This document shows, in pieces, positions 6,131 through 52,733 of a stretch of DNA of 64,000 nucleotides; the first letter of the stretch is position 1, and the number at the start of each line of letters is the position of its first letter. The notes under the pieces were generated by a model. It worked only from the letters and a program-made list of their open reading frames with translations, was not told where the DNA came from and searched no databases. This stretch comes from Candidatus Micrarchaeota archaeon (lineage in GTDB: Archaea; Micrarchaeota; Micrarchaeia; Norongarragalinales; Norongarragalinaceae). Both the position numbers and the translations under genes were made by a program. Location: NCBI GenBank assembly GCA_016207165.1, contig JACQQD010000012.1:32001-96000 (forward strand). The letters run 5' to 3'.

Positions 6131-6171
6131 AAGTAAAACTTTATATACATTTTGTAAAGTAATCTTTACCT
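6131..6171. promoter_or_regulatory. Tandem 20-bp operator half-degenerate sites overlapping a TATA box in a divergent promoter
   Basis: AAGTAAAACTTTATATACAT (6131-6150) and TTGTAAAGTAATCTTTACCT (6152-6171). Confidence 0.7.
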
Positions 6172-6213
6172 ATCGGGCGTAGAGTTTGGAAGGATTTGGG
6201 TTAGTTTCAAGCC

Positions 6214-7632
6214 ATGGCAACGGAGCGAACCACATTTGTCAAGAACACGGCCCTGATTTTGGCGGCCAACGTCTTGGTCTTGGCCATCAGCTTTTTTTTG
6301 CGCCCCCTCATCGCACGATTCATTGGCCCTGACCAGTACGGCGTGTTCGCGTTGATTCTGACCACGTCGATGGTAGTCACTGCGTTCACCGCGTTTTCCA
6401 TGAACAGCGCCGTACTTTACTTCGTATCCAAGCACCACGGCCAGCGACAAAAAGTGGGCCAAACCATGGGCTCGGCTTGTTGGTTCGTCACCGCACTTTT
6501 TGCCGCGTTCTTCGTGCCGCTGTGGCTGCTGATTCCGGCGTTGGTCTCGGAAATCACGTGGTGGCCGTTTGCCACCGCGTACGTCCTTTCGTACGCCAGC
6601 GTCATGCTGTACCTGCTTCAAGCCGGCCAACAGGGCCTCGAAAAATTCAGGGACTACAGCGCCACCCTTTTCCTGTCAACGTTTTTGGCCGGCGTTTTGT
6701 CCGTGGGCGCCGCCTATTTCTTCGGCGACGCATTGGCGGCCGCCGCGCTCCGGGTAGCGGGACTGGCCGCGGTGGTCATCGCCGGATTTTCCATGCTGAA
6801 ACTCGCGTGGGGTTTCAATCGCACACCCCTCAACACGTTACTTCGGTACGCGACGCCCCTGGCCGTCGGCGGGTGGTTTGGATCCTTTTACGCGGTGGTG
6901 GACCGCTACCTCATCGCCCACTTTCACCCGACCGCGGAAGTCGGCTTCTACGACGTGTCGTATGCACTGGTCGTCGCCGTGATCCCGTTTGCGTCCACGT
7001 TTTTCACCGTCATGTCACCCCGCGTCATCAAGAACACGGAATCCTTTCCCACGTATTTCAAGAACATTTCGCGGGCCACGACGTTGGCCGTCACCGGGTT
7101 TGCCTTGGCGGCGTTTTACTTCTCCGACGTCATCGTAACCCTGTTGCTGGGTTCCGAGTACCTGGCGGCGACTCCCATGATCAAAGTATTGGCATTGGCC
7201 GTGCCGTTCATGGCGCTTTACGGATTGAACGCCACGTCGCTTAACGCCTTGGGTAAAACCAAGCTGTCGTCGGGCCTGGCGGTTTTGCTGTTGGCCAGCC
7301 TTCTGGCGCTCAACCTGTTCCTGGTCCAGCCGTTGGGCGGAGTGGGGGCGGCGTGGGCCACCGTGGCCGCGTACGCCCTGGTGACGGGACTGGGAATCGC
7401 GTACGTGCGGGTGAGGCACCGCGTCACCGTGCGGCCGGTGGCGACACAGCTAGCCCTGTTTTACGCGTTCGTGTTGGCGTACGGGTTCCTGGTCGAGCCA
7501 TGGGGTTTCAAAGCCAAGGCCGCGGCTTTCGTGGCGTTTAGTTTGACGACGCTGGCGCTCAACCGCGACCTGATTCAATCCGTGCTCGCCGACGCCCATC
7601 TAAGCCGGTTCATTGAAAAGTGGAAGCGGTAA
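6214..7632 (+). CDS. Oligosaccharide flippase (Wzx/MOP family)
   Basis: Many hydrophobic helices; ARFIGPDQYGVF and DRYLI...VGFYDVS motifs. Confidence 0.88.
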   Translation: MATERTTFVKNTALILAANVLVLAISFFLRPLIARFIGPDQYGVFALILTTSMVVTAFTAFSMNSAVLYFVSKHHGQRQKVGQTMGSACWFVTALFAAFFVPLWLLIPALVSEITWWPFATAYVLSYASVMLYLLQAGQQGLEKFRDYSATLFLSTFLAGVLSVGAAYFFGDALAAAALRVAGLAAVVIAGFSMLKLAWGFNRTPLNTLLRYATPLAVGGWFGSFYAVVDRYLIAHFHPTAEVGFYDVSYALVVAVIPFASTFFTVMSPRVIKNTESFPTYFKNISRATTLAVTGFALAAFYFSDVIVTLLLGSEYLAATPMIKVLALAVPFMALYGLNATSLNALGKTKLSSGLAVLLLASLLALNLFLVQPLGGVGAAWATVAAYALVTGLGIAYVRVRHRVTVRPVATQLALFYAFVLAYGFLVEPWGFKAKAAAFVAFSLTTLALNRDLIQSVLADAHLSRFIEKWKR

Positions 7633-7640
7633 GACCCGTT

Positions 7641-8405
7641 CTATCGTTTTTCGTTCAGCACAACGGAGAGTTCATGGGCGTTGGGAAAATTGATGAGCAC
7701 CGCCCGGTTTCTGCCCATGTATACGGCCATGCTTCCGGCGGCCACCGCCGACGCACCGGCGTCCACGGCTTGCTTGAAATGCATGAGTTCCCAGGCACCG
7801 CCGCAAGCGATGACGGGAATGGAGACGGCGCGGGAAACTTGGCGTATGAGTTCCAAGTCGTAGCCTTGCAGGGTGCCTTCGCGGTCAATGGACGTGAGGA
7901 AAATCTCGCCGGCGCCCCGCTTCTGCACGTTCAACGCATGGGCGGCGGGATCCAGGCCCGTGGGCGTCGTACCGCTGCGAGTAAAGACTTCGTAGCCGGA
8001 ACCGGTTTTTTTGGCGTCGATGGAAACCATTACGGCTTGCGCCCCGAACACCTCGGAGGCCTGCGTGATGAAGGAGGGGTTTTCCACGGCATGGGTGTTG
8101 ACCACGATTTTCTCGACGCCCAAGGCGAAAAGCCGGCGGGCGTCGTCCAAACTCGTTATGCCGCCGCCGTACGTAAGCGGCATGAAGCACTCGTCGGCAA
8201 TCTGCTGGATGGCCTCAAACGCAGGTTTTCGGTTCTCCCGCGTCGCGGAAATGTCTAAAACCACCAACTCGTCCACCTGCTTTTCGTTGTAAATCTTGAT
8301 GGCATTCACCGGGTCGCCGACGTAGTTGGCGTCCTTGAATTGGATGGTCTTGACGAGCCGGTCGTTCTTCAAAAGCAGGCAAGGCATGACGCGGGTTAAC
8401 AACAT
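7641..8405 (-). CDS. HisF-like cyclase (AglZ/HisF2, glycan acetamidino modification)
   Basis: RVMPCLLL..LVKT..F...YVGDP.NA, SIDREGT.QGYD, AVAAGS; lies in the glycan cluster. Confidence 0.9.
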   Translation of the reverse strand: MLLTRVMPCLLLKNDRLVKTIQFKDANYVGDPVNAIKIYNEKQVDELVVLDISATRENRKPAFEAIQQIADECFMPLTYGGGITSLDDARRLFALGVEKIVVNTHAVENPSFITQASEVFGAQAVMVSIDAKKTGSGYEVFTRSGTTPTGLDPAAHALNVQKRGAGEIFLTSIDREGTLQGYDLELIRQVSRAVSIPVIACGGAWELMHFKQAVDAGASAVAAGSMAVYMGRNRAVLINFPNAHELSVVLNEKR

Positions 8406-8409
8406 ACCG

Positions 8410-9036
8410 TCACGCCTTCCTGACGAAGTTTTCCAACAGCTTCATTCCAAACGAGTGGCTTTTTTCGGGGTGGAACTGGACGCCGAAGATGTTGCCTTTG
8501 GCCACCGACGAAGTGAAATCGTAGCCGTAGGGCGTGGTGGCGGCCACGTCCGACGGGTTTTGGCAGACGACGTGGTAGGAGTGCACGAAGTAAAACCGCG
8601 AGTCGTCGGGCATGCCCGAAAACAGGGGGTCTTCTTGCTGGATGGACACGCGGTTCCACCCCATGTGCGGGATTTTCAGTCCCATCTTCGGGTTGAACTT
8701 GAATCGGACGGTCTCTCCTTGAATCCAGCCCAGGCCCGGAAGTTTTCCTTCCTCGCTTTTTTTGCTCAAGAGTTGCATGCCGAGGCAAATGCCCAGCACC
8801 GGGGTCTTGTCTTTGAGGACTTTTTTGTTCAATACCGGGATCAGCCCGCTTTGGTTCAACGCCTGCATGCCGGAGTCAAAAGCGCCCACGCCCGGCAAGA
8901 ATAGTTTTTCCGCGGCCTCGATGACGGCGGGATCCGACGACACGGTGGCCCGGACGCCGATGCGTTTGAGCATGTTCTGAATGGAACCCAAATTGCCGAT
9001 GCCGCAGTCCACGATGACCAGCATGGGCTTACTCAT
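8410..9036 (-). CDS. HisH-like glutamine amidotransferase (AglY-like)
   Basis: LPGVGAF, GICLGMQ, PHMGWN, YFVHSY, QFHPEKS. Confidence 0.92.
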   Translation of the reverse strand: MSKPMLVIVDCGIGNLGSIQNMLKRIGVRATVSSDPAVIEAAEKLFLPGVGAFDSGMQALNQSGLIPVLNKKVLKDKTPVLGICLGMQLLSKKSEEGKLPGLGWIQGETVRFKFNPKMGLKIPHMGWNRVSIQQEDPLFSGMPDDSRFYFVHSYHVVCQNPSDVAATTPYGYDFTSSVAKGNIFGVQFHPEKSHSFGMKLLENFVRKA

Positions 9037-9089
9037 GGCAAGTACCCCATAAAACCGTCGCCATGGAATCGAAATCCGGTGTCTTCACG

Positions 9090-10136
9090 TCAGGTCAGCC
9101 CCTCATACGCTTGAATGAGTTGGCGGGTAATGGGTTGCCACTGGTGGTGCTTGAGCACGAATTTTCGGGCGCGCTCGCCCATTTTTTCCCGGTAGGCCGG
9201 ATCGGCCAAGGCCAACAGTCCGGCCAGGATTTCCTCCTGCGTGTGGGCGTTGGCAATGGGCGGTTTTTCCCCGTAGAAGCGTTCGCCGAGTTTTTCGTCG
9301 ATGTACCGCAGGACCGGTTTTCCGCAAGACATGGCCTCAAGCGCCACCAACCCAAAGGAGCCGATGTTGAACTCGTCAGCCAAGAAATCGGCTTTTCGGT
9401 ACCACGAAAGCATTTCGGCTTGGCTGAGCCAATTTAGAAACGTGACGTTGCGTCCGATGCCCAATTCGGAAACCAGCGCCTTGCTTCTCTCTTTATGGAT
9501 GTCCCAATCCACGGCAAACAACTGCGCATCGGGATGGGTCTTGAGAAATTCGGCGAAGGCCCTGAAGAACTTGTCGTTGCCTTTCGTCACCCAGGAATGC
9601 CGGGTGGGATAGAAAATGGTCAGCCGCGGGTCGGCTCGCGCGACGGAACGCGGCGAATACGTTTCCGTGTCAATGATTTGGAAGACGAATTCCGCATCCA
9701 GGCCCATCTTTTCGAACAACCCCACCTGATCCGGCTGGGAAAAAAGGAGGTGGTCGCACGACGCATACGCGCGCCGCAACAAGAAACCCAGCAAGGTATT
9801 TTCCTGTGCGAACAACCTCAAATCGCTTCCCACGGGTTGCGCGATGAACGGCTTCCCCAAGAGTTGCGCGTAGACGACGCGGCCCCCATGCGCGTGGATC
9901 ACGTCGTATTTCCGCGTGTTTTTCCAGAGCGTGTACAGCGTCTTTGCCGGGTTCTGGGGCCGCCAGTATTTGACCCAAAAATGCCGCTGGTCTTCCGGTG
10001 GCAGTTCCACATCGCTTGGATCGCTGGAGACCATCAACTCGCAGTCTACGCCAGCCTGCCGCAAGTATTTAGCGTAATTGAACGACAGGTTGCAGACGTT
10101 GCCCAGCTGAAGCACTTTCACGACCCATGCACCCAC
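9090..10136 (-). CDS. Glycosyltransferase family 4
   Basis: GSFGLVALEAMSCGKPV motif. Confidence 0.88.
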   Translation of the reverse strand: MGAWVVKVLQLGNVCNLSFNYAKYLRQAGVDCELMVSSDPSDVELPPEDQRHFWVKYWRPQNPAKTLYTLWKNTRKYDVIHAHGGRVVYAQLLGKPFIAQPVGSDLRLFAQENTLLGFLLRRAYASCDHLLFSQPDQVGLFEKMGLDAEFVFQIIDTETYSPRSVARADPRLTIFYPTRHSWVTKGNDKFFRAFAEFLKTHPDAQLFAVDWDIHKERSKALVSELGIGRNVTFLNWLSQAEMLSWYRKADFLADEFNIGSFGLVALEAMSCGKPVLRYIDEKLGERFYGEKPPIANAHTQEEILAGLLALADPAYREKMGERARKFVLKHHQWQPITRQLIQAYEGLT

Positions 10137-10171
10137 GCCGGCGTCTTGCGGCCGACACCACGCTCAGAGAA

Positions 10172-10235
10172 ATGTAAAGTTTGTTTTACATGCCCCTATT
10201 TAACGGTTTTTAGAGATGTAAAGTTTATTTAACAT
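10172..10235. promoter_or_regulatory. Two 20-bp operator sites flanking a TATA-like element in a divergent promoter
   Basis: ATGTAAAGTTTGTTTTACAT (10172-10191) and ATGTAAAGTTTATTTAACAT (10216-10235). Confidence 0.8.
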
Positions 10236-10247
10236 GGCGTCGCCGGT

Positions 10248-11108
10248 ATGCCCATGGAGAAAGTGCTCATCACCGGCGCCAACGGCTATCTGGGAGCGCG
10301 GCTTGCCGAACAACTGCAATCCGGCTACGACGTCATCGGACTGGTCCGAAGCCAAAAAAAAATGCCGTTTGAAAGCGTCGTTCACGACTTAAGCTCGCCG
10401 GACCAGCTGGAAGTGGACTTTGACGCCGCCATCCACGTGGCCGCCATGGAGCCGGACGCATGCCGAAAAGACCCGGTACAAGCGGAGCGCACCAACGTTT
10501 TCGGAACCATCAAACTCCTGGAAGCCGCCAGGAAAAACAAGGCCGAAAAGTTCATCTACGCATCCACCGGATCCGTATACGGCCCAAACGAAAAGCCCGC
10601 CCGCGAAACCATGGCCGTGAATTGCCAGGACGCGTATTGCAGAACCAAATACGGGGGGGAATTGGCCGCGCGACGCTTCAGCCGGTTCTTCCCGGTTTGC
10701 ACGCTGCGTTACTTTTTTCCCTACGGCCCCGGAACACACCCCAGCCGGCTAGTGCAACGAATGGTCAAACACATCCAAACAGGGCAACCCGTTGAACTAA
10801 ACAACGGGAATCGCCCGCAACTCAATCCCCTGTACATCGATGACGTGGTGGCCGCCACCCGCCTTGCGTTGGAACAGGACACCGGCGCGCATGCCGTTCT
10901 GAACGTGGCCGGCGAGGAAAAAACGGACATCCGGGACTTGGCGGAAAAAATCGGCCGCGCCCTCGGCGGGAAGAAACCGGTTTTCAAAAGAACCGGGAAA
11001 ACGTGCTCCAATTACTTGGCGGACATCACCGAGCTAAAAAAAACAGGCTTCCGGCAACGATACTCGCTGGAAGAAGGAATCCTCAAGACGGTTCAAGCCA
11101 CGGCGTAG
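10248..11108 (+). CDS. NAD-dependent epimerase/dehydratase (extended SDR)
   Basis: TGANGYLG and YCRTK (YxxxK). Confidence 0.9.
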   Translation: MPMEKVLITGANGYLGARLAEQLQSGYDVIGLVRSQKKMPFESVVHDLSSPDQLEVDFDAAIHVAAMEPDACRKDPVQAERTNVFGTIKLLEAARKNKAEKFIYASTGSVYGPNEKPARETMAVNCQDAYCRTKYGGELAARRFSRFFPVCTLRYFFPYGPGTHPSRLVQRMVKHIQTGQPVELNNGNRPQLNPLYIDDVVAATRLALEQDTGAHAVLNVAGEEKTDIRDLAEKIGRALGGKKPVFKRTGKTCSNYLADITELKKTGFRQRYSLEEGILKTVQATA

Positions 11109-11112
11109 GCCA

Positions 11113-12282
11113 TCACGTGGCCGGCCGCGTGTACTTGATGTAGAAACTCTTGGGAACCAGTTCCGTTTTGTACATGAGCCAGAAAAGCGGCCGCAGCATG
11201 CGGAACGTGGGGTGATACGTCTCAAAGTCCTTGTGCGTCCGATGCGGCGCACGCAGTATCTCTTCAAACTCCTCGTCGCTTAAGTTCAACCGTTTCTTGA
11301 CTTCCTCCGTGACTTCGTCGTCGTAGGGCACCGGAGTCTTGAGTTCTTCCAGGGCCGCCTCGCGGCTTAACTGCCCGGAGCGGACCATGGCGGCCAATTC
11401 CGTGTAACGCAGGTCCCGGCCGAATTTGCCGGCGAGAATCAAGTTATCCCCAAAAATCGTGTAGCGGTTTTCCATGTGGTGGCCGCCGTACCACTGCCAA
11501 CCAAATTCTTTCGACAGAAACGTCTTGGTTTCCTCCTTCTGGTAGTCCACGTAGTACAAAGGCCGGGCCCGCTTGATGCCTTTCAACAGCCACTTCATCC
11601 ACTTGGACAGCCACAAGTTCGGGTAATGCTTGATTTTCATCGTACCGTAGCGTTTGTGCACGCTTTCCACGTACTTGCCGTCAAAATAGAACCACCCCAA
11701 CGGCGCAAAGCCCTCGGTGCGAAACGAGTGCCCGTCCAGAATGTACTTGACGTGGTGCTTGTCCGCCGCCTCGTACAACGTGGTAATCAAGCCGATGTCG
11801 GTGACGCAATCCGCTTCCGGCACCGAAGCCTTGAGAAAGGCCCGAACCAAGTCATTGAATTCGTCGTTGTCCATGACATACGTGTACAAGTCAATGTCCA
11901 GCTTCCGAAGCACGCGGTGGATGTTCTCCACGGCGATGCGCGAATTCCACGTATTGTCAAAATGAACGGCCAAGGGGCGCAGCCCCAACTTGACTTTCGC
12001 CAGGTACAACAAATACGAGGAATCGCACCCTCCGGAAACGCCGATCACGCAATCATACTTGTTGTTCTTGCCGGAAGCCTTGATACGCTCGGCCAACTCC
12101 ACCAACTTTTTCCAGCCAGCCTCGCCCGTGGGGTACTCGCGATCCATTTGGTCGTGCATGGCGCAGTAATTGCACACGCCCCGATCGTCAAACGTGGTGC
12201 GGGGAATGGTCGTGTCATACACGCACCTCACGCAGGTTTGCCGGGGGCCGGAGCCTCGTTTTTCGTCCATCACAAAAGTCAC
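11113..12282 (-). CDS. N-acetyl sugar amidotransferase (AglX/WbpG/PseA-like)
   Basis: CVRC...GVCNYC, YDCVIGVSGGCDSS PP-loop, WYGGHHME. Confidence 0.9.
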   Translation of the reverse strand: MTFVMDEKRGSGPRQTCVRCVYDTTIPRTTFDDRGVCNYCAMHDQMDREYPTGEAGWKKLVELAERIKASGKNNKYDCVIGVSGGCDSSYLLYLAKVKLGLRPLAVHFDNTWNSRIAVENIHRVLRKLDIDLYTYVMDNDEFNDLVRAFLKASVPEADCVTDIGLITTLYEAADKHHVKYILDGHSFRTEGFAPLGWFYFDGKYVESVHKRYGTMKIKHYPNLWLSKWMKWLLKGIKRARPLYYVDYQKEETKTFLSKEFGWQWYGGHHMENRYTIFGDNLILAGKFGRDLRYTELAAMVRSGQLSREAALEELKTPVPYDDEVTEEVKKRLNLSDEEFEEILRAPHRTHKDFETYHPTFRMLRPLFWLMYKTELVPKSFYIKYTRPAT

Positions 12283-12373
12283 ACTATAGGGTCAAGCCAA
12301 TCCAAACCAAGCGGCGGACCATCGAGTCGAAGCCACGATGCCACCCCGCCTTTTGAAGCAAACCTAGGAACGA

Positions 12374-12393
12374 ATGTATATAAAACTTTACAT
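12374..12393. promoter_or_regulatory. 20-bp operator site overlapping a TATA box
   Basis: ATGTATATAAAACTTTACAT between the divergent amidotransferase and epimerase genes. Confidence 0.75.
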
Positions 12394-12471
12394 CCTCACG
12401 TACCATGGGAAATCGGAAAAAAAGAAAAGCGATCAAAAAGATTCGAACACGAAAAACCGTGGACAAACGAT

Positions 12472-13446
12472 ATGGCGAAAAACCAGGTGTTGGTAACCGG
12501 CGGCGCCGGATTCATTGGCAGCTTCGTGGTCGAACAACTCGTGCGACGAGGCAAAGACGTCGTGGTATTGGACAATTTCCGCTCCGGAAAACGCGGGAAC
12601 CTCTCGGCGGTGGCCAACCAAGTCAAAATCGTGGAAGGCGACATCCGGAGTCTGGACACCTTGGACCGCGTCATGCGGGGAATTCAAACCGTGTACCACA
12701 TGGCCGTCGAGCCCTTGACCATTGGATTGATTGACCCGTTCCTGATGGATTCCGTCAACAGCACCGGAACGCTCAACGTGTTGTACGCCGCCAAAAAACA
12801 CAAAGTCGTGCGCTTCAACTACGTGTCGTCATCCGAAGTATATGGCACGGCGAAGCATGTGCCCATGGACGAAGGCCACCCCTTGGATCCGTACACCACG
12901 TACGCGGCGTCCAAAGCCGCCGGCGAAGCGTACACGCGGGCCTACCACAACTGCTACGGCATGGACTACACCCTGATTCGGCCGTTCAACGCCTTTGGAC
13001 CCAGGCACCGCATGGACAGCTACAGCGCCGTGATCTTCCGGTTTTTGGAGCGCTTTTTGGCCGACAAACCGCCCATCGTCTACGGAACTGGAGAGCAGAC
13101 GCGGGACTTGAGCTTCGTCAAGGACTCCGCGCGCGGCATCGTGTTGGCGGGAGAATCGCCGGCCACCATCAACGACGCCATCAACATCGGCACCGGAACC
13201 GAGGTCAGCGTCAACGAAATCGCGCGCGTCATGGGGAAAGTGATGGGAAAAGACTTCGCGCCCCGGTACGAAAAAGAGCGGCCAGGCGACGTCATGCGCC
13301 ACTTGGCCGACGTGTCCAAAGCCAAGAAAGTCTTGGGCTTCAAGCCGGAACACACCTTTGAACAGGGCATCCGGGAAACGGTGGCTTGGTACAAAAACGC
13401 CCACGAGAACCACAGGCCGATTTCCGTCGGGGAAAAGAAAACGTGA
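12472..13446 (+). CDS. NDP-sugar epimerase/dehydratase (GalE-like SDR)
   Basis: TGGAGFIGS, SSSEVYG, YAASK, GEQTRD, RPGDV; start placed at MAKNQ. Confidence 0.92.
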   Translation: MAKNQVLVTGGAGFIGSFVVEQLVRRGKDVVVLDNFRSGKRGNLSAVANQVKIVEGDIRSLDTLDRVMRGIQTVYHMAVEPLTIGLIDPFLMDSVNSTGTLNVLYAAKKHKVVRFNYVSSSEVYGTAKHVPMDEGHPLDPYTTYAASKAAGEAYTRAYHNCYGMDYTLIRPFNAFGPRHRMDSYSAVIFRFLERFLADKPPIVYGTGEQTRDLSFVKDSARGIVLAGESPATINDAINIGTGTEVSVNEIARVMGKVMGKDFAPRYEKERPGDVMRHLADVSKAKKVLGFKPEHTFEQGIRETVAWYKNAHENHRPISVGEKKT

Positions 13447-13506
13447 GCAAACCAAAGGGTTTTAACTCATTGACGGAAACAGTCCCTTTCAGCGTGTGAC
13501 CATCCA

Positions 13507-16254
13507 ATGCCTGTCGAGTTCTTGCCTTTGTTGTTGGCCTTTACCGTCTTGACGGTGCCCGGCATCGCGATGAGCTTCGCGCTCTTGCGAGGCACGTCAC
13601 TGAACCGGGCGGACAAGGCGCTCTTGGGCGCGGTTTTGGGTTTTGTCGCGGTGCCGCTTCTTTCATTCGTTGAATACTTGTTTCTGGGCATCGGCTTTAG
13701 CGCGCAACTGGTTTTGGCCAATTCGCTTTTGGTGTTGTTGGCGTCGCTTTTCGCCATGCACCTGCAGGGCGCGAAAATAAAAAAGCCCTCCCTGGGCGTG
13801 GATCTTTCAGGGGGTGCCCTGGACGTCCTCAAACGACACAAGAAACCCGCCATCTACCTCGCGCTTCTGGCCATCATGGCCCTGACGTTCTACGTGCGTT
13901 TTGCGCCTGCCTTTGACGCCACGTTTTTCGAGTTTGACCCGTATTACTACGAAAAACTCACGGAGCGGCTCGTCACCGCGGGGCACATCGACGCGTTTAG
14001 CGGCGACGCGTACTACCCGGAAAAGGCGTTCCAAGCCTGGCCGCCTTTGACGCAGTACCTCACCGGATCCTGGTACCTCTTGCACCAGTTCTTCGCCGGC
14101 CAATCCTACGACAAGACCACACTGATTTTGGTTTCCCAACTTTATCCCCCGGTGGTGGCCGCGTTCATGGGCTTTGTCGCGTTTTTGCTGGTGCGCACGG
14201 AATACAACGCGTACTACGGCCTAGTTGCCGCCGGCCTCATGGCGTTCACGCCGCAATTGGTCAAAAAATTCGGGGCCGGCGTGGCCGAGACGCAGCCGTG
14301 GGCGCTTTTTGCCGCCGTGCTTTTGTTTGCGCTGGTGCTTTTGATGCTCAAGGAAAAAAGCTACCGACTCGGCGCCCTGGCCGGCATCGCCGCACTTTCC
14401 AACCTGCTGGGCAGCCAGCAATACATTTGGCCCATCATCGTGCTGGGCGTGTTCATCGGCATCCAAGGCGTCCTGTACTTCTTGTCCAACTCGTTTGACG
14501 CCAAAAAATGGCAGCTCTTGGGCCTGGTGACCGCCGGCGTGCTTTTGGGCAACACGATTTTGGCCCTGTATCAAGGCCAGTACATCATCACGTTTACCGA
14601 CCCCATTCCCATGACGCTGTTGGCGGCCTACGTTTTTGGCACCATCCTTTTTGCCGCCGCCAAGTTCCTGCCATTAAAGACCATGACGCACCGCGTCGGA
14701 GCCCTCGGCGCGATTACCGTTCTTGGAATTGTCGCCTCCAGCTTCACGCCGCTTCTGAACATTTTGGCCAACACCGTGTTAAGCCAGTCCCGCGCCGCGT
14801 TTGCGCGAGGCGCGTTGGGTCAAACCATTGCCGAGGAAGGCCGAACCGTGCCCAGCCTCTTTGAGCCCTCGTTTGGCTCATTGAATCCCCCGCTTTTGCT
14901 GGGATTGGCGGCTCTGGTCACCCTGCTGTTGGCCGTCGTGTGGCTGGCCCGCCGCGACCACGTCAAATCCGCCGGAGTCTTGGCGGTTTTCGGCTTTTCC
15001 TTGATTTTCCTCAACCCCGTGGTGGACTCCGGTCTTTCAGCCCTGGAAAAAGCCATCCAGAACCCCGACGTTTCCGGATTGATCAACCTGTTCATCCAGA
15101 ACGACGTCTTCGGATACCTGCTGATCGCCTTGGTTTCCGTGTCCGCCTTGTACCTGACGTTGCCGGAAAACCAGCGAAGCGAAACCACGCTCTTGATGGC
15201 GCTCATCGTTTTTCCCATCGCGTTTGTGGGCCTGAACAAACTCAAGTTCATCGTGCACTTGTCCGTGGGGTTGACCCTCGCTCTGCCGTACGTCTTGGGC
15301 GAAAGCCAGCGGCTCTTGGAAGCCCTCAACGAATGGTTCAAGGTGTTTGCCAATCCGGCATCGTTCCGCATCGGCGTGCTGGCGTTTTTACTAGCCATCG
15401 GAGCCTTCGGCGTCTTCGCGCAAAGCCAAACCGTGGGGCAGAGCATGACGGAATTGCAGTTCACGCGCATCCCATCGGATTGGGTGCAAGCCTACCAATG
15501 GATGAACGCCAACACCCCCGTGGATTCCCGCATCATGTCGTGGTGGGATTACGGGCACTGGACGAACTTTTTTGGCGACCGGGACTCGGTGCTGGCCCCC
15601 ACGAACTTGTACGGCAAATTCAACCACGGAGTGGCGCGGGCGTTCGTCAACGGCGACGTCGACGAGCTTTACGACCGCATGGATTTTCACCAGGCCACGC
15701 ACGTGCTGGTGGACGCCGACTTGGTCGGCAAATGGGGGGCGCTGGTGTACCTCAGCGGCACCTGCCAGCAATCCGACGTGGCCTTCTGCCCTAAAGCTCC
15801 GGACGTGAACCTCTCCAACAGCCCCGGACAAAGCAAGTACGAAACGGAACACTACTTTGAAACCCTCGCCGTGGTGGGCAACTGCCCGGCATCGCTGACC
15901 GGCGTGCCGGTTCCGGCCATGCAAAGCAGCTTCGGCCTGGTGTACTGCGTAACGCAAAACGAGTTGCTGTTGGTGACCAACGACGGCCAACTCTCCGGCA
16001 CGGCCAGGTCCTACAAACTGGTCGGCCGCGACAACATCACCCAACTCTCCGAAAACGAGTCCTACTTGTTTGCCATCGGCGAAAACCAGTTCATCAACGT
16101 CAACCCCGACCTGGAACCCTTCAACATGAAAAGCAACGTCTTTAACGCGGCATTCACGCGCCTGTACTTCTTCGAATCCCTGCCCGGCTTTGAACTGGCG
16201 TACCGGTCCCCCAACAGCCAAGTCAAAATCTTCAAGTACACCGGCCGGCCTTGA
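13507..16254 (+). CDS. aglB: Oligosaccharyltransferase STT3/AglB
   Basis: EFDPYY, TIAEE and SWWDYGHW motifs; multipass membrane protein. Confidence 0.93.
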   Translation: MPVEFLPLLLAFTVLTVPGIAMSFALLRGTSLNRADKALLGAVLGFVAVPLLSFVEYLFLGIGFSAQLVLANSLLVLLASLFAMHLQGAKIKKPSLGVDLSGGALDVLKRHKKPAIYLALLAIMALTFYVRFAPAFDATFFEFDPYYYEKLTERLVTAGHIDAFSGDAYYPEKAFQAWPPLTQYLTGSWYLLHQFFAGQSYDKTTLILVSQLYPPVVAAFMGFVAFLLVRTEYNAYYGLVAAGLMAFTPQLVKKFGAGVAETQPWALFAAVLLFALVLLMLKEKSYRLGALAGIAALSNLLGSQQYIWPIIVLGVFIGIQGVLYFLSNSFDAKKWQLLGLVTAGVLLGNTILALYQGQYIITFTDPIPMTLLAAYVFGTILFAAAKFLPLKTMTHRVGALGAITVLGIVASSFTPLLNILANTVLSQSRAAFARGALGQTIAEEGRTVPSLFEPSFGSLNPPLLLGLAALVTLLLAVVWLARRDHVKSAGVLAVFGFSLIFLNPVVDSGLSALEKAIQNPDVSGLINLFIQNDVFGYLLIALVSVSALYLTLPENQRSETTLLMALIVFPIAFVGLNKLKFIVHLSVGLTLALPYVLGESQRLLEALNEWFKVFANPASFRIGVLAFLLAIGAFGVFAQSQTVGQSMTELQFTRIPSDWVQAYQWMNANTPVDSRIMSWWDYGHWTNFFGDRDSVLAPTNLYGKFNHGVARAFVNGDVDELYDRMDFHQATHVLVDADLVGKWGALVYLSGTCQQSDVAFCPKAPDVNLSNSPGQSKYETEHYFETLAVVGNCPASLTGVPVPAMQSSFGLVYCVTQNELLLVTNDGQLSGTARSYKLVGRDNITQLSENESYLFAIGENQFINVNPDLEPFNMKSNVFNAAFTRLYFFESLPGFELAYRSPNSQVKIFKYTGRP

Positions 16255-16283: not shown

Positions 16284-16303
16284 ATGTAAAGTATACTTTA
16301 CAT
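16284..16303. promoter_or_regulatory. Perfect 20-bp palindromic operator overlapping a start codon
   Basis: ATGTAAAGTATACTTTACAT is its own reverse complement; TATAAAAA lies just upstream; last 2 nt are the AT of ATG 16302. Confidence 0.85.
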
Positions 16304-17414
16304 GCATTTTTTGGTGTTGGGCTCCAAAGAGTACCCGGTGGGGCAAGGACAAAACGCGGACCCCTTGCCTTCGGGAGGTATGGAACGATACACCCAGGAA
16401 CTAGCCGACGGCCTGAAAAAAGCCGGTCACGACGTGACGGTGGTCACCCGAAGATTCGGACGAAAAAAATACGAGGACCTCCGGGGCATCCGCGTCGAAC
16501 GCGTAGGCTGGATTTCGGGATTTTTCCTGCGCAATCCGTCGTTCAACCTCAACGCCTACCGCCGCGCGCGAAGCCTGGACTACGACGTCTGCATCGCCCA
16601 AGGCGCCCTGGCGACGTTGGCGGCGCTGGCCTTGAAGGCTGAAAAGAAAAAACCCGTCATCGCCCGGCCCGCAGGCGTGGCGTTTCTCCAACCTCAATAC
16701 CCCGCCTGGCTGAAGGCACTGCTTTACCGGTTGGAGCGGTTCGCGTACCGCCACGCCGACGCCGTCGTATTTCCCAACCCGCAAGAGCAAGAAGCGTTCA
16801 AAAAGAAACTCGGCTTCCGCCCGTCCCGCGCCGTGCTCATCCCGACGGGCGTCAACGCAAAGCGGTTCCGTCCCCGCAAAAAGGCCAAGAAACGCCAGCC
16901 CACCGTCGTGTTCGTCGGACGGCTCCAAAAAGTCAAAGGCACGCAATACCTCATTGACGCCATGGCGGGGCTGGACGCGAGACTGGACATCGTGGGAAGC
17001 GGTCCTGAAGAAAAGCACTTGAAGAAACGGGTGGCTGAAAAAGGCCTTGAAAAAAAAATCCGGTTCATGGGAAACCAAACCAATGTTGAACCCCTTCTTT
17101 CCAAAGCCGACGCATTCGTCCTGCCATCGCTGTCCGAAGGCCTGCCCATCGCGCTTCTGGAGGCCTGGGCCGCGAAGGTGCCGGCCGTGGTCACAGACAT
17201 CGGTTTGCCCGCCGAGAATGGAAAAGATGCCTTGGTCGTGAAACCCGGAGACTCCAACGCCCTGCGCCAAGCCATTGGACGCATTCTATCCAATGAGAAA
17301 CTGGCCCGCCGACTTTCAGAGAATGCGTACCGGCGCGTCATGCGGGAATACAACTGGGACCACGCCGTCAAAAAATACGTTGAGGTGGCCAAGCGCCTGT
17401 GTGCGGCATCGTAG
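16302..17414 (+). CDS. Glycosyltransferase family 4
   Basis: GGMERY, FVGRL..KG, EGLPIALLEA. Confidence 0.92.
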   Translation: MHFLVLGSKEYPVGQGQNADPLPSGGMERYTQELADGLKKAGHDVTVVTRRFGRKKYEDLRGIRVERVGWISGFFLRNPSFNLNAYRRARSLDYDVCIAQGALATLAALALKAEKKKPVIARPAGVAFLQPQYPAWLKALLYRLERFAYRHADAVVFPNPQEQEAFKKKLGFRPSRAVLIPTGVNAKRFRPRKKAKKRQPTVVFVGRLQKVKGTQYLIDAMAGLDARLDIVGSGPEEKHLKKRVAEKGLEKKIRFMGNQTNVEPLLSKADAFVLPSLSEGLPIALLEAWAAKVPAVVTDIGLPAENGKDALVVKPGDSNALRQAIGRILSNEKLARRLSENAYRRVMREYNWDHAVKKYVEVAKRLCAAS

Positions 17415-19225
17415 GCGTGCTGGGTCTTTCGGACCGGCGGCTCATTGAACGCATGAAAAAAGCCGTGGCCCACCGGGGGCCGGACCAGCATGGCACGTAC
17501 ATGGGAAAAAGCGTGATGCTGGGCCACCAGCGCCTCAGCATTCTGGACCTCTCCGAGAAAGGACGCCAACCCATGGCAGACCACGAAGGAAACGTCGTGG
17601 TGTTCAACGGAGAAATCTACAACCACAAAGCCCTGCGAGGCGAACTGGAAAAAAAAGGATACCGATTCGTCAGCCAAAGCGACACGGAAGTCCTGGTACA
17701 CGGCTTTTCCGAATGGAAGAATGCCTTGCCCGAAAAGCTGGACGGCGAATACGCGTTTGCCGCCTGGAACGAAGACCGCCGCGAACTCCTGCTGGCCCGC
17801 GATGCCCTCGGCGTCGTGCCTTTGTACGTGGCGAAAACCCGCGACGCATTCTTCTTCGCTTCCGAACCCAAGGCGTTTTTTGAATTCGAAGGCATTCAAC
17901 CCAAACTCAATTCAAGCGCGCTGGATTCGTACCTCACGTACCGCTACCCCGTGGCCCCGGACACCTTGTTTGAAGGCATCCAAAAAGTCCGGCCCGGACA
18001 CGCCCTGACGGTGAACGCCAAAATCCGTCAACGACGGTTCTACGTTCCCCCCACGCAAGAAACCGCGGTAACGGCCACCGAAGCCCAAGCCCGCATCCAA
18101 GCGCTTTTCGCCGCTTCAGTCAAAAAGCGGCTGCAAAGCGACGTTCCGTTGGGTGCGTACCTCTCCGGGGGACTGGACTCAAGCTTCATCGTCGCCCAAA
18201 TGAGCCAATGGACCAAACCCCGCACCTTCTCCGTGGCATTTGGGGCGGAAGACGACGAGACGCCGTTTGTCGAGGAAATCGTCTCCCACTACGACACGAT
18301 CCACACCCCGCTTCATGTCGAGGCGGACCGCTTCGACTTGTTGCCTCAAATCACGTGGCACCTGGACGCGCCGGCCGCGGACATCGCCGCCCTCCCGACG
18401 TACCTCATGGCGCAAGCCACCAAAAAGTACGCCACCGTGGTGTTGACCGGCGACGGCGGCGACGAAGTGTTCGCCGGCTACAACCGGTACCAGCGGCTGT
18501 TGGCCTTGGAGCGCATCCGAAAAATTCCAGCGACTTGGACGCGTGCCGCCGCCCTCTTTCTGCCGAAAACCACGGCCGCCCGCCTAACGGAAGCCATGCA
18601 CGCGAAAAGCCGCGCCGAACTGGTCGTCGCGTACAGCGCCGCGTACTCGGAAAACGAGAAAACCGCGATGGGCGTAAAACCTTCCGGCATGGCGGTCCGC
18701 TTGGCGGAAGAGTTCTTCAAAACCGACCAGACCTTTCTCAACCAAATGCTGGCCATGGACCAAGCCACGTTGCTGCCGGACGACTACCTCTTGAAAGTCA
18801 ACACGCAAAGCATGGCGCACGGCGTCGAGGCGCGCGTGCCCTTCTTGGACACGGCATTGGTCAATTACGCCGCCACCCTTCCCGCGTCGCTCAAGGCCAC
18901 GTGGAAAACCACGCGCATCATCCAACGCCGCGCCATGAAAGCCATGGGCGTGCCGGAGAAAATCCTGAAACGGAAAAAACACGGCTTCAACGTGCCCACC
19001 GCGTCCTGGCTGAAACAAGGACTGATCGGAGTGGCGGAGCAATGCTTTGAAAGCCTGGACCAAAGAAAACTCATGAAACCCGGTGCAGGCCAACGCGTGC
19101 TGAAACAATTTGACGAAAGCCCGGCGTACTTTACGCGCCAGTTCTGGACGCTGTTGGGCCTGGAACTCTGGTGCCGTGTTTACTTGGATTGCGGAAAGCC
19201 CGTCAAACCAAAGTGGAAACTCTGA
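17399..19225 (+). CDS. asnB: Asparagine synthase (glutamine-hydrolysing)-family amidotransferase, probably glycan-modifying
   Basis: MCGI Ntn cysteine, HRGPD, FNGEIYN, LSGGLDSS, EARVPFLD. Confidence 0.92.
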   Translation: MCGIVGVLGLSDRRLIERMKKAVAHRGPDQHGTYMGKSVMLGHQRLSILDLSEKGRQPMADHEGNVVVFNGEIYNHKALRGELEKKGYRFVSQSDTEVLVHGFSEWKNALPEKLDGEYAFAAWNEDRRELLLARDALGVVPLYVAKTRDAFFFASEPKAFFEFEGIQPKLNSSALDSYLTYRYPVAPDTLFEGIQKVRPGHALTVNAKIRQRRFYVPPTQETAVTATEAQARIQALFAASVKKRLQSDVPLGAYLSGGLDSSFIVAQMSQWTKPRTFSVAFGAEDDETPFVEEIVSHYDTIHTPLHVEADRFDLLPQITWHLDAPAADIAALPTYLMAQATKKYATVVLTGDGGDEVFAGYNRYQRLLALERIRKIPATWTRAAALFLPKTTAARLTEAMHAKSRAELVVAYSAAYSENEKTAMGVKPSGMAVRLAEEFFKTDQTFLNQMLAMDQATLLPDDYLLKVNTQSMAHGVEARVPFLDTALVNYAATLPASLKATWKTTRIIQRRAMKAMGVPEKILKRKKHGFNVPTASWLKQGLIGVAEQCFESLDQRKLMKPGAGQRVLKQFDESPAYFTRQFWTLLGLELWCRVYLDCGKPVKPKWKL

Positions 19226-19291
19226 AGGATTAAAAATGCAGGAGACCTACCTGAAGAAAACGCCGCGCGTCCATGAAGTGAAAAAAATCAG

Positions 19292-20290
19292 ATGAACGAG
19301 TCCATCATCCTGACAGGCCTCCTGGTGGCACTGGTCACCACATGGGCACTGACACCCTTGGTCATCAAGGCCGCCACGCGCCGCGGATTTTTGGAACACG
19401 ACGACAACAAGAAGAAAAGGCCCCTGGTTCCGGGAATGGGCGGATTCGCTATTCTCGCCGGAATGATGGCCGGCATCCTCGTCGGCATCCTGTACGGCGC
19501 CTACGCCGAACCAGACCCCTTGCTGCAACGCACGCTTTTGGCCGGGCTTTCCACCGTGGCCATGGTCGCCATCGTCGGCGCCCTGGACGACTTGTTCAAG
19601 ATCCGTTTGTGGTTCAAAACGTTGCTGCCGGTGTTGGGTTCACTTCCCCTGGTGGCCACCAAAGCCGGTCAAAGCGTGATGAACCTGCCGCTTTTAGGTA
19701 CCGTGAGCCTGGGGCCGCTGTACAACTTCGTCTTGGTGCCCTTGGGCGTCACCGGCGCGGCCAATGCCGCCAATCTGACGGCCGGCTACAACGGCTTGGA
19801 AGCCGGCTTTGGCGTGGTGGCGTTCTCCACGTTGTTGATCATCGCCGTGCAAAGCGGCGCATTTCCAGCCGCCGTTTTGTTGGCTGCTGGCCTGGGCGCG
19901 TGCATCGGTTTCCTGAAGTACAACTGGTTTCCAGCCAGAATATTTCCAGGCGACGTCGGCACGCTTTCCATCGGCGCGCTTCTGGCATCCGCGGCCATCG
20001 TGGGAAACATGGAAAAATACGCCGTCATCCTCGTGCTTCCCGTCCTCTATGAGTTGACCGCCACAGTGTACTATTCCCTCAAAGGCGTTTCCCGCCGAAA
20101 AGCCGTGCACAGCCCCGTCATCGCCATGGACGGAACCCTTTCGCCGCCCCGAGGATCAAAGTACTACAACCTGCCGCATTTCATCCTGTCACGAAAACCC
20201 CTCCGCGAACCGCACCTCGTCCGGGTTTACTTGAGCCTGTTTGCGGCATCCGGCCTTTTGGCGCTGGCGACGTTTTGGCTGGGAATCTGA
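19292..20290 (+). CDS. MraY/GPT-family UDP-GlcNAc:polyprenyl-phosphate GlcNAc-1-P transferase (AglH-like)
   Basis: PGMGG, GALDD, NLTAGYNGLEAG, NWFPARIFPGDVG. Confidence 0.88.
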   Translation: MNESIILTGLLVALVTTWALTPLVIKAATRRGFLEHDDNKKKRPLVPGMGGFAILAGMMAGILVGILYGAYAEPDPLLQRTLLAGLSTVAMVAIVGALDDLFKIRLWFKTLLPVLGSLPLVATKAGQSVMNLPLLGTVSLGPLYNFVLVPLGVTGAANAANLTAGYNGLEAGFGVVAFSTLLIIAVQSGAFPAAVLLAAGLGACIGFLKYNWFPARIFPGDVGTLSIGALLASAAIVGNMEKYAVILVLPVLYELTATVYYSLKGVSRRKAVHSPVIAMDGTLSPPRGSKYYNLPHFILSRKPLREPHLVRVYLSLFAASGLLALATFWLGI

Positions 20291-23256: not shown

Positions 23257-23259
23257 ACC

Positions 23260-26618: not shown

Positions 26619-26754
26619 TGGAGGGGGAGGGATTTGAACCCTCGAACCCACAAAGGGAACAGATTCCCCAACCCGGCCGAAAAGCCGGAACGTTCATGGG
26701 AGTTGGCCTGGGATCTTGAGTCTGTCGCGTTTGACCAGGCTTTGCTACCCCTCC
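26619..26754 (-). tRNA. tRNA-Leu(CAA) with ~50-nt intron at the canonical 37/38 position
   Basis: Minus strand: GGAGGGG acceptor pairs with CCCCTCC-A; ACAGA-CTCAAG-[intron]-ATCTGT anticodon arm; long variable arm; GAGGG-TTCAAAT-CCCTC T arm; CCA not encoded. Confidence 0.93.
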
Positions 26755-45217: not shown

Positions 45218-45288
45218 GCAAAACCAAAAGCAAAACAAGTATTAATAATCGCGGTTCAATACGGCTAGCTCCAACTAGACTGAATGCC

Positions 45289-47123: not shown

Positions 47124-47169
47124 CTGCACCGGGCAACAAGCATATAACGGCGGAATACGACGTTTTTCC

Positions 47170-47766: not shown

Positions 47767-47789
47767 GCCTTGATTCTTCCAAAGCATGC

Positions 47790-48782: not shown

Positions 48783-48794
48783 CCGGTTGTAAAC

Positions 48795-49655: not shown

Positions 49656-49735
49656 AATCGTTCGACGGGTACGCAGGTCTTGAAATGCAAAGAAGTAAAA
49701 AACGGCATGCCAATCCGTTTGCTTGCTGAAGCACA

Positions 49736-51514: not shown

Positions 51515-51572
51515 ATGCGACAGGTCAGGGAGCGCAACGCATTAAATGCGCCGGGTTTACACCATAAAATCC

Positions 51573-51992
51573 ATGCAGTACCGAAAAGACGAAAACGGGT
51601 TCGTGGTGGTCTTGGAGAAAGGCGAAAAGGTGGTGGAGAGCCTGAACGCCTTCTTCAAGAAGGAGGGCATCCGCGGAGGGCTCGTTTCCGGCATTGGGGC
51701 GTTGGACCAAGCGGAACTGATGAGCTACGATGTTGAGGCCAAAAGGTACGTTTCGAAAATCTTTCAAGGCGAGTTCGAGTTGTGCGCGTTGGCGGGCAAC
51801 GTGACGGAAAAAGGCTTGCACGCGCACGTGACTCTGGCGGGCGTCATGGGGAAGAATGAAACGTGTTTCGGCGGCCACTTAAAAGAAGGCCGCGTCCTGG
51901 TGACCGGAGAGTTCTTCGTGATCCCATTTGCATCCATCCGGAAAGAGTACCGCCCCGCCATGGGCTTAGACGTGATGGACCTGAATGGCTAG
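51573..51992 (+). CDS. PPC/DUF296 domain protein
   Basis: GIGAL, GNV...LHAHV, GGHL. Confidence 0.88.
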   Translation: MQYRKDENGFVVVLEKGEKVVESLNAFFKKEGIRGGLVSGIGALDQAELMSYDVEAKRYVSKIFQGEFELCALAGNVTEKGLHAHVTLAGVMGKNETCFGGHLKEGRVLVTGEFFVIPFASIRKEYRPAMGLDVMDLNG

Positions 51993-52363
51993 TTCATGTT
52001 TTTGAGGTATTCCAGCGTCACGCTGTAGACGAACGCGAGGATGCCCACCATGATGGCCAGCACTCCGTTGGCGCTGGTGGGTCGGTTGGTGACCGTCAGA
52101 AAACCCAGGATCAAGATGACCACGGCAAAGGCGGCCACCAGCGTGATGCGGGCGGCTTTGCCAGCCAAAAGCTCGGTGCGCTCATCGCTTTTGATGACGT
52201 CCTTGGACATGACTTCCCGCCAGACGTAAAGGCCTCCGGCAATCAGCAAGCCGAACAAGAGAACGGAGAACGCCAACGGGTCCAGGTCGTAGCGGGACAC
52301 GTAGACTTGGTACAGGACCAAGGTGAAGACCGCGGAGATGAGGATGTTTCGGATTCGCACCAT
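51989..52363 (-). CDS. DUF2178-like membrane protein
   Basis: 4 TM helices, DER...AGKAARIT motif; directly downstream of the XRE HTH gene. Confidence 0.72.
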   Translation of the reverse strand: MVRIRNILISAVFTLVLYQVYVSRYDLDPLAFSVLLFGLLIAGGLYVWREVMSKDVIKSDERTELLAGKAARITLVAAFAVVILILGFLTVTNRPTSANGVLAIMVGILAFVYSVTLEYLKNMN

Positions 52364-52365
52364 TG

Positions 52366-52554
52366 TTACGCCTCAAATATCTTTTCAATGGGCTCCTTAA
52401 AAATGTGCGATAACTTGAAGGCCAACTCCAAAGACGGGTTGTACTTGCCGTTTTCTATAGCCAGAATGGTTTGGCGCGTCACGCCGGCTTTGCGCGCCAA
52501 GTCGTCCTGCGTCATTTTCTCGCGGGCACGCAATTCGCGCAAGTGGTTCTGCAT
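52366..52554 (-). CDS. Small XRE/Cro-family HTH transcriptional regulator
   Basis: LRELRA...TQDDLA...GVTRQTILAIENGKYNPSLELAFKL. Confidence 0.93.
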   Translation of the reverse strand: MQNHLRELRAREKMTQDDLARKAGVTRQTILAIENGKYNPSLELAFKLSHIFKEPIEKIFEA

Positions 52555-52572
52555 GTAAAACATTATTTACAT
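52553..52572. promoter_or_regulatory. 20-bp operator overlapping the XRE gene start codon (probable autoregulation)
   Basis: ATGTAAAACATTATTTACAT; TATA-like TTAAATA just upstream on the minus strand. Confidence 0.8.
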
Positions 52573-52600
52573 GGACTATTTAAGGCGTTGCAATTTCTGG

Positions 52601-52694
52601 AAAAAATGAAGTCGGGGTCCGCCAACCGGCGGCCCCGAAGTTCGTCGAGGGGTTCTTTCGTATCAGGGAGGGCCCGTGAAAACCCAACCCCGAT
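52601..52694 (-). ncRNA. Candidate structured small RNA or leader
   Basis: TATA box TTTATATA about 25 nt upstream; GC-rich stems; 3' hairpin UCGGGG-CCGCC/GGCGG-A-CCCCGA followed by a U6 tract. Confidence 0.45.
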
Positions 52695-52733
52695 GTAAAG
52701 TATATTTTACATTATGTATATAAAGCTTTACAT
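52693..52733. promoter_or_regulatory. Tandem 20-bp operators overlapping a TATA box
   Basis: ATGTAAAGTATATTTTACAT (52693-52712) and ATGTATATAAAGCTTTACAT (52714-52733). Confidence 0.82.

Follow-up and report, generated by a model that had tools for sequence, protein, structure and literature searches.

A candidate small XRE-type regulator and its palindromic operator at the surface-glycan genes of a Micrarchaeota archaeon

The stretch of DNA analyzed here (the window) comprises 64,000 nucleotides, positions 32001-96000 of contig 12 of a 1.27-Mb Micrarchaeota assembly (12 contigs, 56.5% G+C) that is most closely related, among named genomes, to 'Candidatus Micrarchaeota' assemblies from groundwater. 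Towards one end, the window carries a cluster of archaeal glycan-modification genes and, towards the other, a minus-strand gene for a small protein of the XRE/Cro helix-turn-helix (HTH) type, followed by a gene for a membrane protein resembling the family DUF2178. Copies of a 20-bp palindrome with the consensus ATGTAAAG-N4-CTTTACAT were found at the promoters of both, and this work concerns the putative regulon defined by them, with the XRE protein as the proposed regulator (Table 1).

Eight copies of this palindrome with zero to three mismatches were recovered in the window (6152, 10172, 10216, 12374, 16284, 52553, 52693, and 52714), against an expectation of 0.07 for a match with at most three mismatches, and none of 100 dinucleotide shuffles reached eight. 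The original prediction, made from the DNA letters alone, had counted nine; the ninth, at 6131 (AAGTAAAACTTTATATACAT), has four mismatches and was therefore missed by this search, and it was recovered with 27.3 bits by the weight matrix described below. Since the G+C content of the window is 52-60%, these AT-rich palindromes were conspicuous. The copies at 6131 and 6152 lay exactly 21 bp apart, and the phasing of the pair 52693/52714 was identical. The overlap with a TATA box that had been claimed for three copies was observed at 6131, 12374, and 52714, all of which contained TATATA(A). Likewise, the geometry ascribed jointly to 16284 and 52553 was found at both positions, the final AT of the palindrome supplying the first two letters of the start codon (ATG) of the adjacent open reading frame (ORF). 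The TATA-to-ATG spacing of about 25 bp at these two genes suggested that their transcription may be leaderless. The sequencing runs listed for the organism were four groundwater DNA runs from one study, with no RNA run among them.

The gene calls around the divergent glycan promoters were borne out by Pfam and NCBIfam matches. The gene of the oligosaccharyltransferase AglB is placed behind an epimerase gene whose promoter bears the site at 12374, and the Glycos_transf_4 gene is probably co-transcribed with the GT4 and asparagine synthase-like genes that follow the site at 16284.

The whole genome contained 15 consensus matches with at most three mismatches, and a symmetrised weight matrix was built from these 15 sites. 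With this matrix, 17 sites scored above 21 bits, and they were located in glycan-related promoters and at the XRE gene; the next best reached 17.8 bits, with noise below. No site of at least 20 bits was obtained in the reversed-genome control. The mean in 200 shuffles of the 129,617 intergenic bases was 0.03 such sites, which argues against an effect of AT-rich spacers and against the motif being equally common in any AT-rich intergenic DNA. The half-sites held 1.0-1.8 bits of information per position, the spacer 0.4-0.8 bits and the flanks about 0.1 bits. Six of the 17 sites had been placed by the greedy ORF caller within long wrong-strand ORFs that were spurious, and these sites were reassigned by eye and with Pfam. 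Another site, on contig 2 at 16209 (17.8 bits), was excluded from the regulon as weak and isolated.

The 17 sites corresponded to 10 promoter regions on five contigs, six regions in the window and four outside. Hence, the glycan regulon that had been proposed from the window was extended, the additions including glmS and the genes of two probable surface glycoproteins. The agl-type gene set was present at the motif, namely GT4, Polysacc_synt, WbuX, AglZ/HisF2, Glycos_transf_4, epimerases, and glmS. The two proteins encoded next to the site pairs on contigs 9 and 10 had hydrophobic N-termini and contained 50.6 and 56 N-X-S/T sequons per 1000 amino acids, above the 99.6th percentile of a genome whose median is 2.4; these sequon-rich, secreted proteins are probable surface glycoproteins. 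Judged by gene families, the regulon would span the first committed amino-sugar step, a pathway of the diacetamido/acetamidino uronic-acid type, glycosyltransferases, the flippase, AglB, and likely glycoprotein substrates. The name used for the uronic-acid pathway, with 2,3-diacetamido sugars, comes from the family names and in part from general background. Five other large proteins with 44-66 sequons per 1000 residues had no operator site, and the control would therefore cover only some of the probable surface glycoproteins.

Additionally, a tRNA-like sequence with an insertion was noticed by eye on contig 8 at about 163780-163880 (about 5780-5880 of locus L140). It lies about 70 bp from the operators 163671/163692, on the side opposite the dehydrogenase gene.

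Table 1. Coordinates of the palindromic sites, the genes beside them and related features. Positions without a contig name refer to the window; scores in bits are those of the weight matrix for operators and of the family models for genes.
Feature	Position	Strand	Remarks
Operator	6131..6150	.	Carries TATA box TTTATATA; half of 21-bp pair in oxidoreductase/flippase divergent promoter; 27.3 bits
Operator	6152..6171	.	2 mismatches; 26.6 bits; between TATA box and flippase start 6214
Operator	10172..10191	.	1 mismatch; 30.5 bits; GT4-hisH-hisF side of divergent promoter
Operator	10216..10235	.	2 mismatches; 25.6 bits; 13 bp ahead of epimerase ATG at 10248
Operator	12374..12393	.	Single, with TATA box; 2 mismatches; 29.7 bits; between WbuX amidotransferase (-) and epimerase-aglB operon (+)
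Operator	16284..16303	.	Perfect palindrome; 34.5 bits; immediately 3' of TATA box CCTATAAAAA; last AT opens GT4-asnB ATG
Operator	52553..52572	.	Putative proximal autoregulatory site; after TATA-like TTAAATAG on minus strand; overlaps XRE start codon
Operator	52693..52712	.	1 mismatch; 34.0 bits; distal, downstream member of pair reading towards XRE gene
Operator	52714..52733	.	2 mismatches; 30.2 bits; distal; TATA box TTTATATA on minus strand; 21 bp from 52693
XRE/Cro-type HTH protein, proposed regulator	52366..52554	-	62 amino acids, single-domain; Pfam HTH_3
DUF2178-like membrane protein	51989..52363	-	124 amino acids; four hydrophobic stretches; starts 2 bp after XRE stop codon
Leader or small-RNA-like element	52596..52692	-	About 95 nt; between distal operator pair and proximal XRE promoter; four-genome alignment
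Counterparts of leader element	L002:1338-1440; L003:1940-2046; L004:729-830		L003 counterpart on minus strand
FAD-dependent amine oxidoreductase-like	4654..6087	-	Pfam Amino_oxidase, E 1e-21; start 44 bp from operator 6131; putative target
Polysacc_synt-type flippase	6214..7632	+	Pfam; putative target
Operon GT4 + HisH + AglZ/HisF2 (acetamidino modification)	7641..10136	-	Pfam, NCBIfam; putative target
GT4	9090-10136	-	Pfam
HisH-like	8410-9036	-	Pfam
AglZ/HisF2-like	7641-8405	-	NCBIfam AglZ_HisF2_fam, 345.9 bits (cut-off 310)
NAD-dependent epimerase/dehydratase	10248..11108	+	Pfam Epimerase, E 1.8e-37; putative target
WbuX-type N-acetyl sugar amidotransferase	11113..12282	-	NCBIfam TIGR03573, 249.7 bits (cut-off 203.2); putative target
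Operon epimerase/dehydratase, then oligosaccharyltransferase AglB (STT3)	12472..16254	+	Pfam; putative target
Epimerase of aglB operon	12472-13446	+	Pfam
STT3/AglB	13507-16254	+	Pfam STT3, 64.2 bits (cut-off 24.5)
Operon GT4 + asparagine synthase-like amidotransferase + Glycos_transf_4 (AglH/MraY-type)	16302..20290	+	Pfam; putative target
GT4	16302-17414	+	Pfam
Asparagine synthase-like	17399-19225	+	Pfam
Site outside window	contig 1, 104968		TATA box, then palindrome, then glmS 17 bp on
Site pair outside window	contig 8, 163671/163692		Upstream of GFO/IDH/MocA dehydrogenase resembling archaeal UDP-GlcNAc 3-dehydrogenase
Site pair outside window	contig 12, 24212/24233		Divergent promoter; side 1: epimerase, hexapeptide acetyltransferase, DegT aminotransferase; side 2: UDP-GlcNAc 2-epimerase, epimerase, UDP-ManNAc-dehydrogenase-like gene, GT4
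Site pairs outside window	contig 9, 8009/8030; contig 10, 765/786		Upstream of two proteins without Pfam match
Sequon-rich proteins without site	contig 10, 11913-22650; contig 2, 35794-40347; contig 8, 57737-59518		

The proposed regulator matched HTH_3 with 62.5 bits (cut-off 23) over residues 5-58, and among the five matches above the cut-off in the genome it alone comes from a small single-domain gene. In the recognition-helix stretch VTRQTI, residues R26, Q27, and T28 were invariant among 28 aligned homologues, and V24, T25, and I29 were invariant or nearly so. Homologues with 55-68% identity were found in Bacillota, Chloroflexota, Planctomycetota, Patescibacteria, Nitrososphaeria, Methanosarcinales, and haloarchaea.

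Orthologues at least 70% identical were present in eight relatives from three genera (genomes G001, G002, G009, G007, G015, G019, G022, and G024), and in all eight a site overlapped the start codon of the orthologue or lay within 20 bp of it. In one genus, the arrangement ahead of the orthologue consisted of a palindrome with the TATA box, 1 bp, and a palindrome ending in the ATG. The distal operator 52693 was kept in G001, G002, and G009. No site at the start-codon position was observed for any of three homologues with 54-57% identity. When 41 genomes were compared, the 18-mer core with at most one mismatch occurred in eight of the nine genomes with an orthologue at least 70% identical (the eight relatives and G000, the window's own genome) versus one of the 32 others, a pattern rather than a statistical test, since the genomes are related. 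The counts of the 18-mer in those eight genomes were 7, 5, 5, 6, 1, 1, 2, and 1, and the control pattern gave 0-1 per genome.

Furthermore, the palindrome was found beside more distant homologues. In 80 genome loci, which include five of the Micrarchaeota relatives already counted, 105 sites of at least 20 bits were detected versus two in the reversed control, and 69 of the 80 loci had a site. Most of these sites lay before the gene of a membrane protein of about 148 amino acids that precedes the regulator gene, and 96 of the 105 were at most 700 bp upstream of the regulator gene. A set of 80 metagenome loci, many of them short and two on one contig, gave 95 sites of at least 20 bits versus none in the control, with a site in 56 of the 80; arrays of two or three sites at 21-bp spacing recurred among them. 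The homologues on Haloferax volcanii pHV4 and Halogeometricum pHBOR02, among the 60 of 899 plasmid matches listed, likewise had such palindromes ahead of their operons. Because members of this protein family in both bacteria and archaea have the same palindrome at their own promoters, the XRE protein is the simplest candidate for the binder. This family-wide upstream operator is, as far as comparison of genomes can tell, the strongest of the three lines that link the palindrome to the XRE protein, the other two being the site at the orthologue starts and the co-occurrence of motif and orthologue.

Several details of these loci were recorded on their own account. L147 and L148 form one 34-kb metagenome contig with two identical regulator loci in opposite orientation, which may reflect an inverted duplication or else a palindromic artefact of the assembly. 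In the haloarchaeal megaplasmid loci L144 (Haloferax volcanii pHV4, HVO_RS03255 to HVO_RS03265), L145, and L146, the regulator homologue lies behind the gene of a membrane protein, which in turn is preceded by a similar palindrome. In Halobacterium, the ORF preceding the regulator homologue carries the annotation of an ISH7A transposase, and an ISH7A element adjoins the pair, a context that hints at a mobile regulator module. The half-site variants of bacteria were also tried as sigma-70 -35/-10 boxes, and this was given up when the hand-worked spacing did not fit.

The sites at the glycan genes were also conserved in the relatives. A site was observed upstream of glmS, of the giant sequon-rich protein, of GT4 genes (facing a polysaccharide deacetylase in G002) and of a Glycos_transf_4/epimerase pair in both G001 and G002, so that the Glycos_transf_4 orthologue has its own site there. 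The orthologous GT4-asnB promoter had a site in G009, G015, and G024. Genome G009 showed further sites upstream of a secreted protein of the contig 10 type, of a GFO/IDH/MocA gene and of a nucleotide-sugar dehydrogenase/epimerase pair, and in G022 (L030) the flippase orthologue, paired with a DegT gene, stands beside a site. The 44-45-bp pair seen at 10172/10216 was likewise found in G001 (L124) and G002 (L131). In G007 and in the metagenome locus L153, the regulator pair itself is located inside a glycan cluster, divergent from an epimerase and with two operators between them.

Some further sites in these genomes were less easily placed. A 30.6-bit site on contig 116 of G009 (L135:3040-4013) precedes a 290-amino-acid protein with HTH_20 and 'S-layer like family, outer domain' (S_layer_C) matches; this architecture is unusual, and the protein may act as a second regulator inside the regulon. 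No Pfam match was obtained for either of the two genes adjoining a 23.6-bit site of G001 (L128). Three candidates were excluded from the regulon: a 17.8-bit site of G009 (L133) beside carbamoyl-phosphate synthase and a GTPase and a single one-mismatch match in G026, both weak or isolated, and an isolated 29.6-bit site of G035 (L040) beside a 420-amino-acid ORF.

Taken together, the operator at the orthologue starts, the co-occurrence of motif and orthologue, the XRE/DUF2178 operons of bacteria and archaea, and the conserved glycan promoters support, on the level of sequence comparison, the proposal that the XRE protein recognizes the palindrome, autoregulates, and controls the glycan genes, as had been predicted. 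The reading preferred here, to which we give a probability of about three in four, is that the protein binds as a dimer and, most likely by repression, regulates itself and about nine further promoter regions. A dimer of the 62-amino-acid protein would occupy ATGTAAAG-N4-CTTTACAT, with half-site centers 11 bp apart; given this distance and the 21 bp (two helical turns) between paired operators, the bound dimers would lie on one face of the helix. Autoregulation would operate through the operator over the XRE start codon and the second operator pair 140-160 bp upstream. The further promoter regions under control would be those of glmS, nucleotide-sugar enzymes, glycosyltransferases, the flippase, the epimerase-aglB operon, and the two sequon-rich proteins.

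Repression appeared the most likely sign of this control from the placement of the sites. Eight of the 10 promoter regions have a site that either contains the TATA box (6131, 12374, 52714, contig 8 at 163692, and contig 12 at 24233) or sits between the TATA box and the start codon, and the sites at 6152, 10172, 10216, 16284, 52553, and contig 1 at 104968 lie directly after the TATA box, over the presumed start. A site on or after the TATA box is the usual position for archaeal repressors, and repression is therefore favored. The bound protein would exclude TBP/TFB or RNA polymerase.

Several observations weigh against this reading in whole or in part. The weight matrix was trained on the genome's own sites and is circular within this genome, not for the other genomes; hence, the independent tests here are the consensus counts in the window and the genome. 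All of the genomes supporting the regulon come from three related genera of one family, and their counts are not independent. In five bacterial genomes with a homologue, the motif was not enriched relative to the control (36/29, 11/15, 37/32, 23/17, and 25/17); therefore, a large regulon is not general to the family and appears to characterize this archaeal lineage. The Pfam DUF2178 score of the membrane partner, 22.2 bits, falls just below the cut-off of 22.8. Finally, the site pairs of contig 9 (8009/8030) and contig 10 (765/786) lie upstream of the best TATA-like box, a position that fits activation equally well.

An XRE protein that binds the palindrome and activates, or acts dually, at some or all of the glycan and surface-protein promoters, repressing only itself, would account for these two pairs, the first of which precedes the TATA-like TTTATAAAG by about 40 bp and the second of which lies just upstream of TTATAAAG. 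It would also agree with a homologous Cro/C1-type regulator of a bacteriocin operon, which the accessible part of a preprint (10.64898/2026.09.04.749385) describes as a positive regulator though it binds a promoter inverted repeat. Nevertheless, the sites on or behind the TATA box in the other eight promoter regions make such activation unlikely.

It is more improbable still that another transcription factor binds the palindrome, with the XRE gene merely one of its targets. Four further HTH_3 matches above the cut-off in the genome could supply such a factor. Nevertheless, the same palindrome stands at homologous operons of XRE and membrane-protein genes in many phyla of both bacteria and archaea, so that unrelated organisms would have to share the factor, the motif tracks the close XRE orthologue among the relatives, and none of the 17 sites is at another regulator gene. 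A further alternative does without a dedicated regulator and takes the palindromes for copies of a small repeat element or of a promoter cassette that was duplicated, or else for a variant core promoter. It is scarcely credible: the 41-bp pair 52693-52733 is nearly identical to the contig 8 pair 163671-163711 and several copies include a TATA box, but conservation is confined to the half-sites while spacers and flanks differ, orthologous promoters in other genera retain the half-sites amid diverged surroundings, and the motif also occurs in bacteria, whose core promoters differ.

The membrane protein encoded with the XRE protein was considered as its partner. The original prediction had described a 62-amino-acid XRE gene followed by a DUF2178-like membrane gene; the HTH_3 match of the first is above the cut-off and the DUF2178 score of the second just short of it. 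Among the aligned homologues of the partner, DUF2178 scored up to 59.6 bits and 16 of 18 matched it at E up to 0.01. The pairing of the XRE and membrane-protein genes was kept in the relatives. After its second hydrophobic stretch, the partner has a basic loop with an invariant D-E pair within K-x-DER-x(3)-AGKAAR, which by the positive-inside rule would be cytoplasmic.

The closest studied pair is CylR2/CylR1 of the Enterococcus faecalis cytolysin operon. CylR2 is a single-domain HTH protein of 66 amino acids that aligned with residues 3-61 of the XRE protein (phmmer E 2.4e-12), and its gene likewise adjoins that of a small multi-pass membrane protein. According to a review (PMC3709268), CylR2 represses by binding its promoter and is encoded with CylR1, which is required for induction and is thought to relay an outside signal. 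The XRE protein would be, like CylR2, a homodimer on a promoter inverted repeat, and by analogy the DUF2178-like protein, co-transcribed with it, is possibly its signal-sensing partner and may relay signals from the membrane or envelope to the repressor, the role that has been proposed in the case of CylR1/CylR2. The two systems differ in that CylR2 controls one toxin operon, unlike the approximately ten glycan-synthesis promoters here, in that CylR1 has three predicted membrane helices, and in that the archaeal operators overlap TATA boxes, unlike the bacterial promoter elements at CylR2.

The operons of the YoaS-YozG type in Bacillota and other phyla also consist, as here, of a small Cro/C1-like HTH gene and a small membrane-protein gene. 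In the accessible part of a preprint (10.64898/2026.09.15.751765), AT-rich inverted repeats upstream of these operons are put forward as putative autoregulatory operators, comparable to those upstream of the XRE operon (52553 and 52693/52714), and the membrane partner is named DUF2975; in our case it is DUF2178-like, and DUF2975 was absent from the 13 families listed. A figure or supplement of that preprint may show a similar operator consensus. The best solved relative of the XRE protein was PDB 9k3w (65 amino acids, named 'Transcriptional regulator, PbsX family' by its depositors), with E 7.6e-15 over residues 2-61.

On the side of the target genes, the WbuX-type amidotransferase, the HisH-like gene, and the AglZ/HisF2-model gene resemble what we take to be the AglX/AglY/AglZ acetamidino pathway of Methanococcus maripaludis, a name that comes from the NCBIfam model; this comparison covers the enzymes only, and to our knowledge no regulator of that pathway is known. 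The literature search, at the level of listings and abstracts, agreed with the earlier statement that no dedicated regulator of archaeal agl or N-glycosylation genes has been described, the only related case found being TrmB, with an indirect effect. In the archaea Halobacterium salinarum and Haloferax volcanii, loss of the transcription factor TrmB affects S-layer N-glycosylation; TrmB belongs to another protein family, acts through the gluconeogenic supply of sugar precursors, and is presented in the available part of the report without an operator at agl genes (PMC11023807). Hence, the type of regulator is known (CylR2/YozG-like), and what is new is the regulon, the defined operator, and the DPANN setting.

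The non-coding element (about 95 nt) that separates the distal operators from the proximal XRE promoter was also conserved in four genomes. It has a 5' hairpin, the conserved CCCCTCGA, a 3' GC-rich hairpin whose sequence varies between genomes and, in three of the four genomes, a T run; a terminator-like match was found at 52627-52610, and no start codon occurs inside the element in the window sequence. The consensus fold of the four genomes gave almost nothing (-1.9 kcal/mol) because the 3' hairpins do not align. Hairpins were seen in the single-sequence folds, with G009 alone clearly beating its shuffles (z -6.5) and the other three at z -1.3 to -2.6. The element may represent an attenuator or a small RNA controlled by the same operators. 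A minus-strand gene (52936-54822) that ends just past the distal operators encodes a KH/beta-CASP/metallo-beta-lactamase protein of the FttA (aCPSF1) transcription-termination type. Elsewhere in the window, an Rfam tRNA match of 136 nt on the minus strand (26619-26754, 40.2 bits), absent from the ARAGORN calls, is probably a tRNA gene with an intron.

The transcriptional control of archaeal N-glycosylation is largely unknown and gene regulation in DPANN archaea is almost unstudied. The present finding supplies a concrete candidate regulator, a defined operator, and about ten candidate target promoters. Homologous operons of an XRE gene and a membrane-protein gene are marked by this palindrome in many bacterial and archaeal phyla, one such operon lying on plasmid pHV4 of Haloferax volcanii, a genetically tractable species; a widespread gene pair whose function is unknown thus becomes accessible to experiment. 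The difference between self-regulation only, as in the five bacterial genomes, and a regulon of ten promoters would point to a small mobile module recruited to a cell-surface program. It is conceivable, though as yet doubtful, that the XRE/DUF2178 pair constitutes a phosphorelay-free membrane-to-DNA switch, with which an episymbiotic DPANN archaeon toggles its whole surface coat (precursor supply, N-glycan pathway, oligosaccharyltransferase, and heavily glycosylated surface proteins) on an envelope or host-contact signal. If this were true, archaeal N-glycosylation would have its first dedicated transcriptional regulator, whose operator would be a key to many uncharacterized modules of small XRE and membrane proteins in bacteria and archaea.

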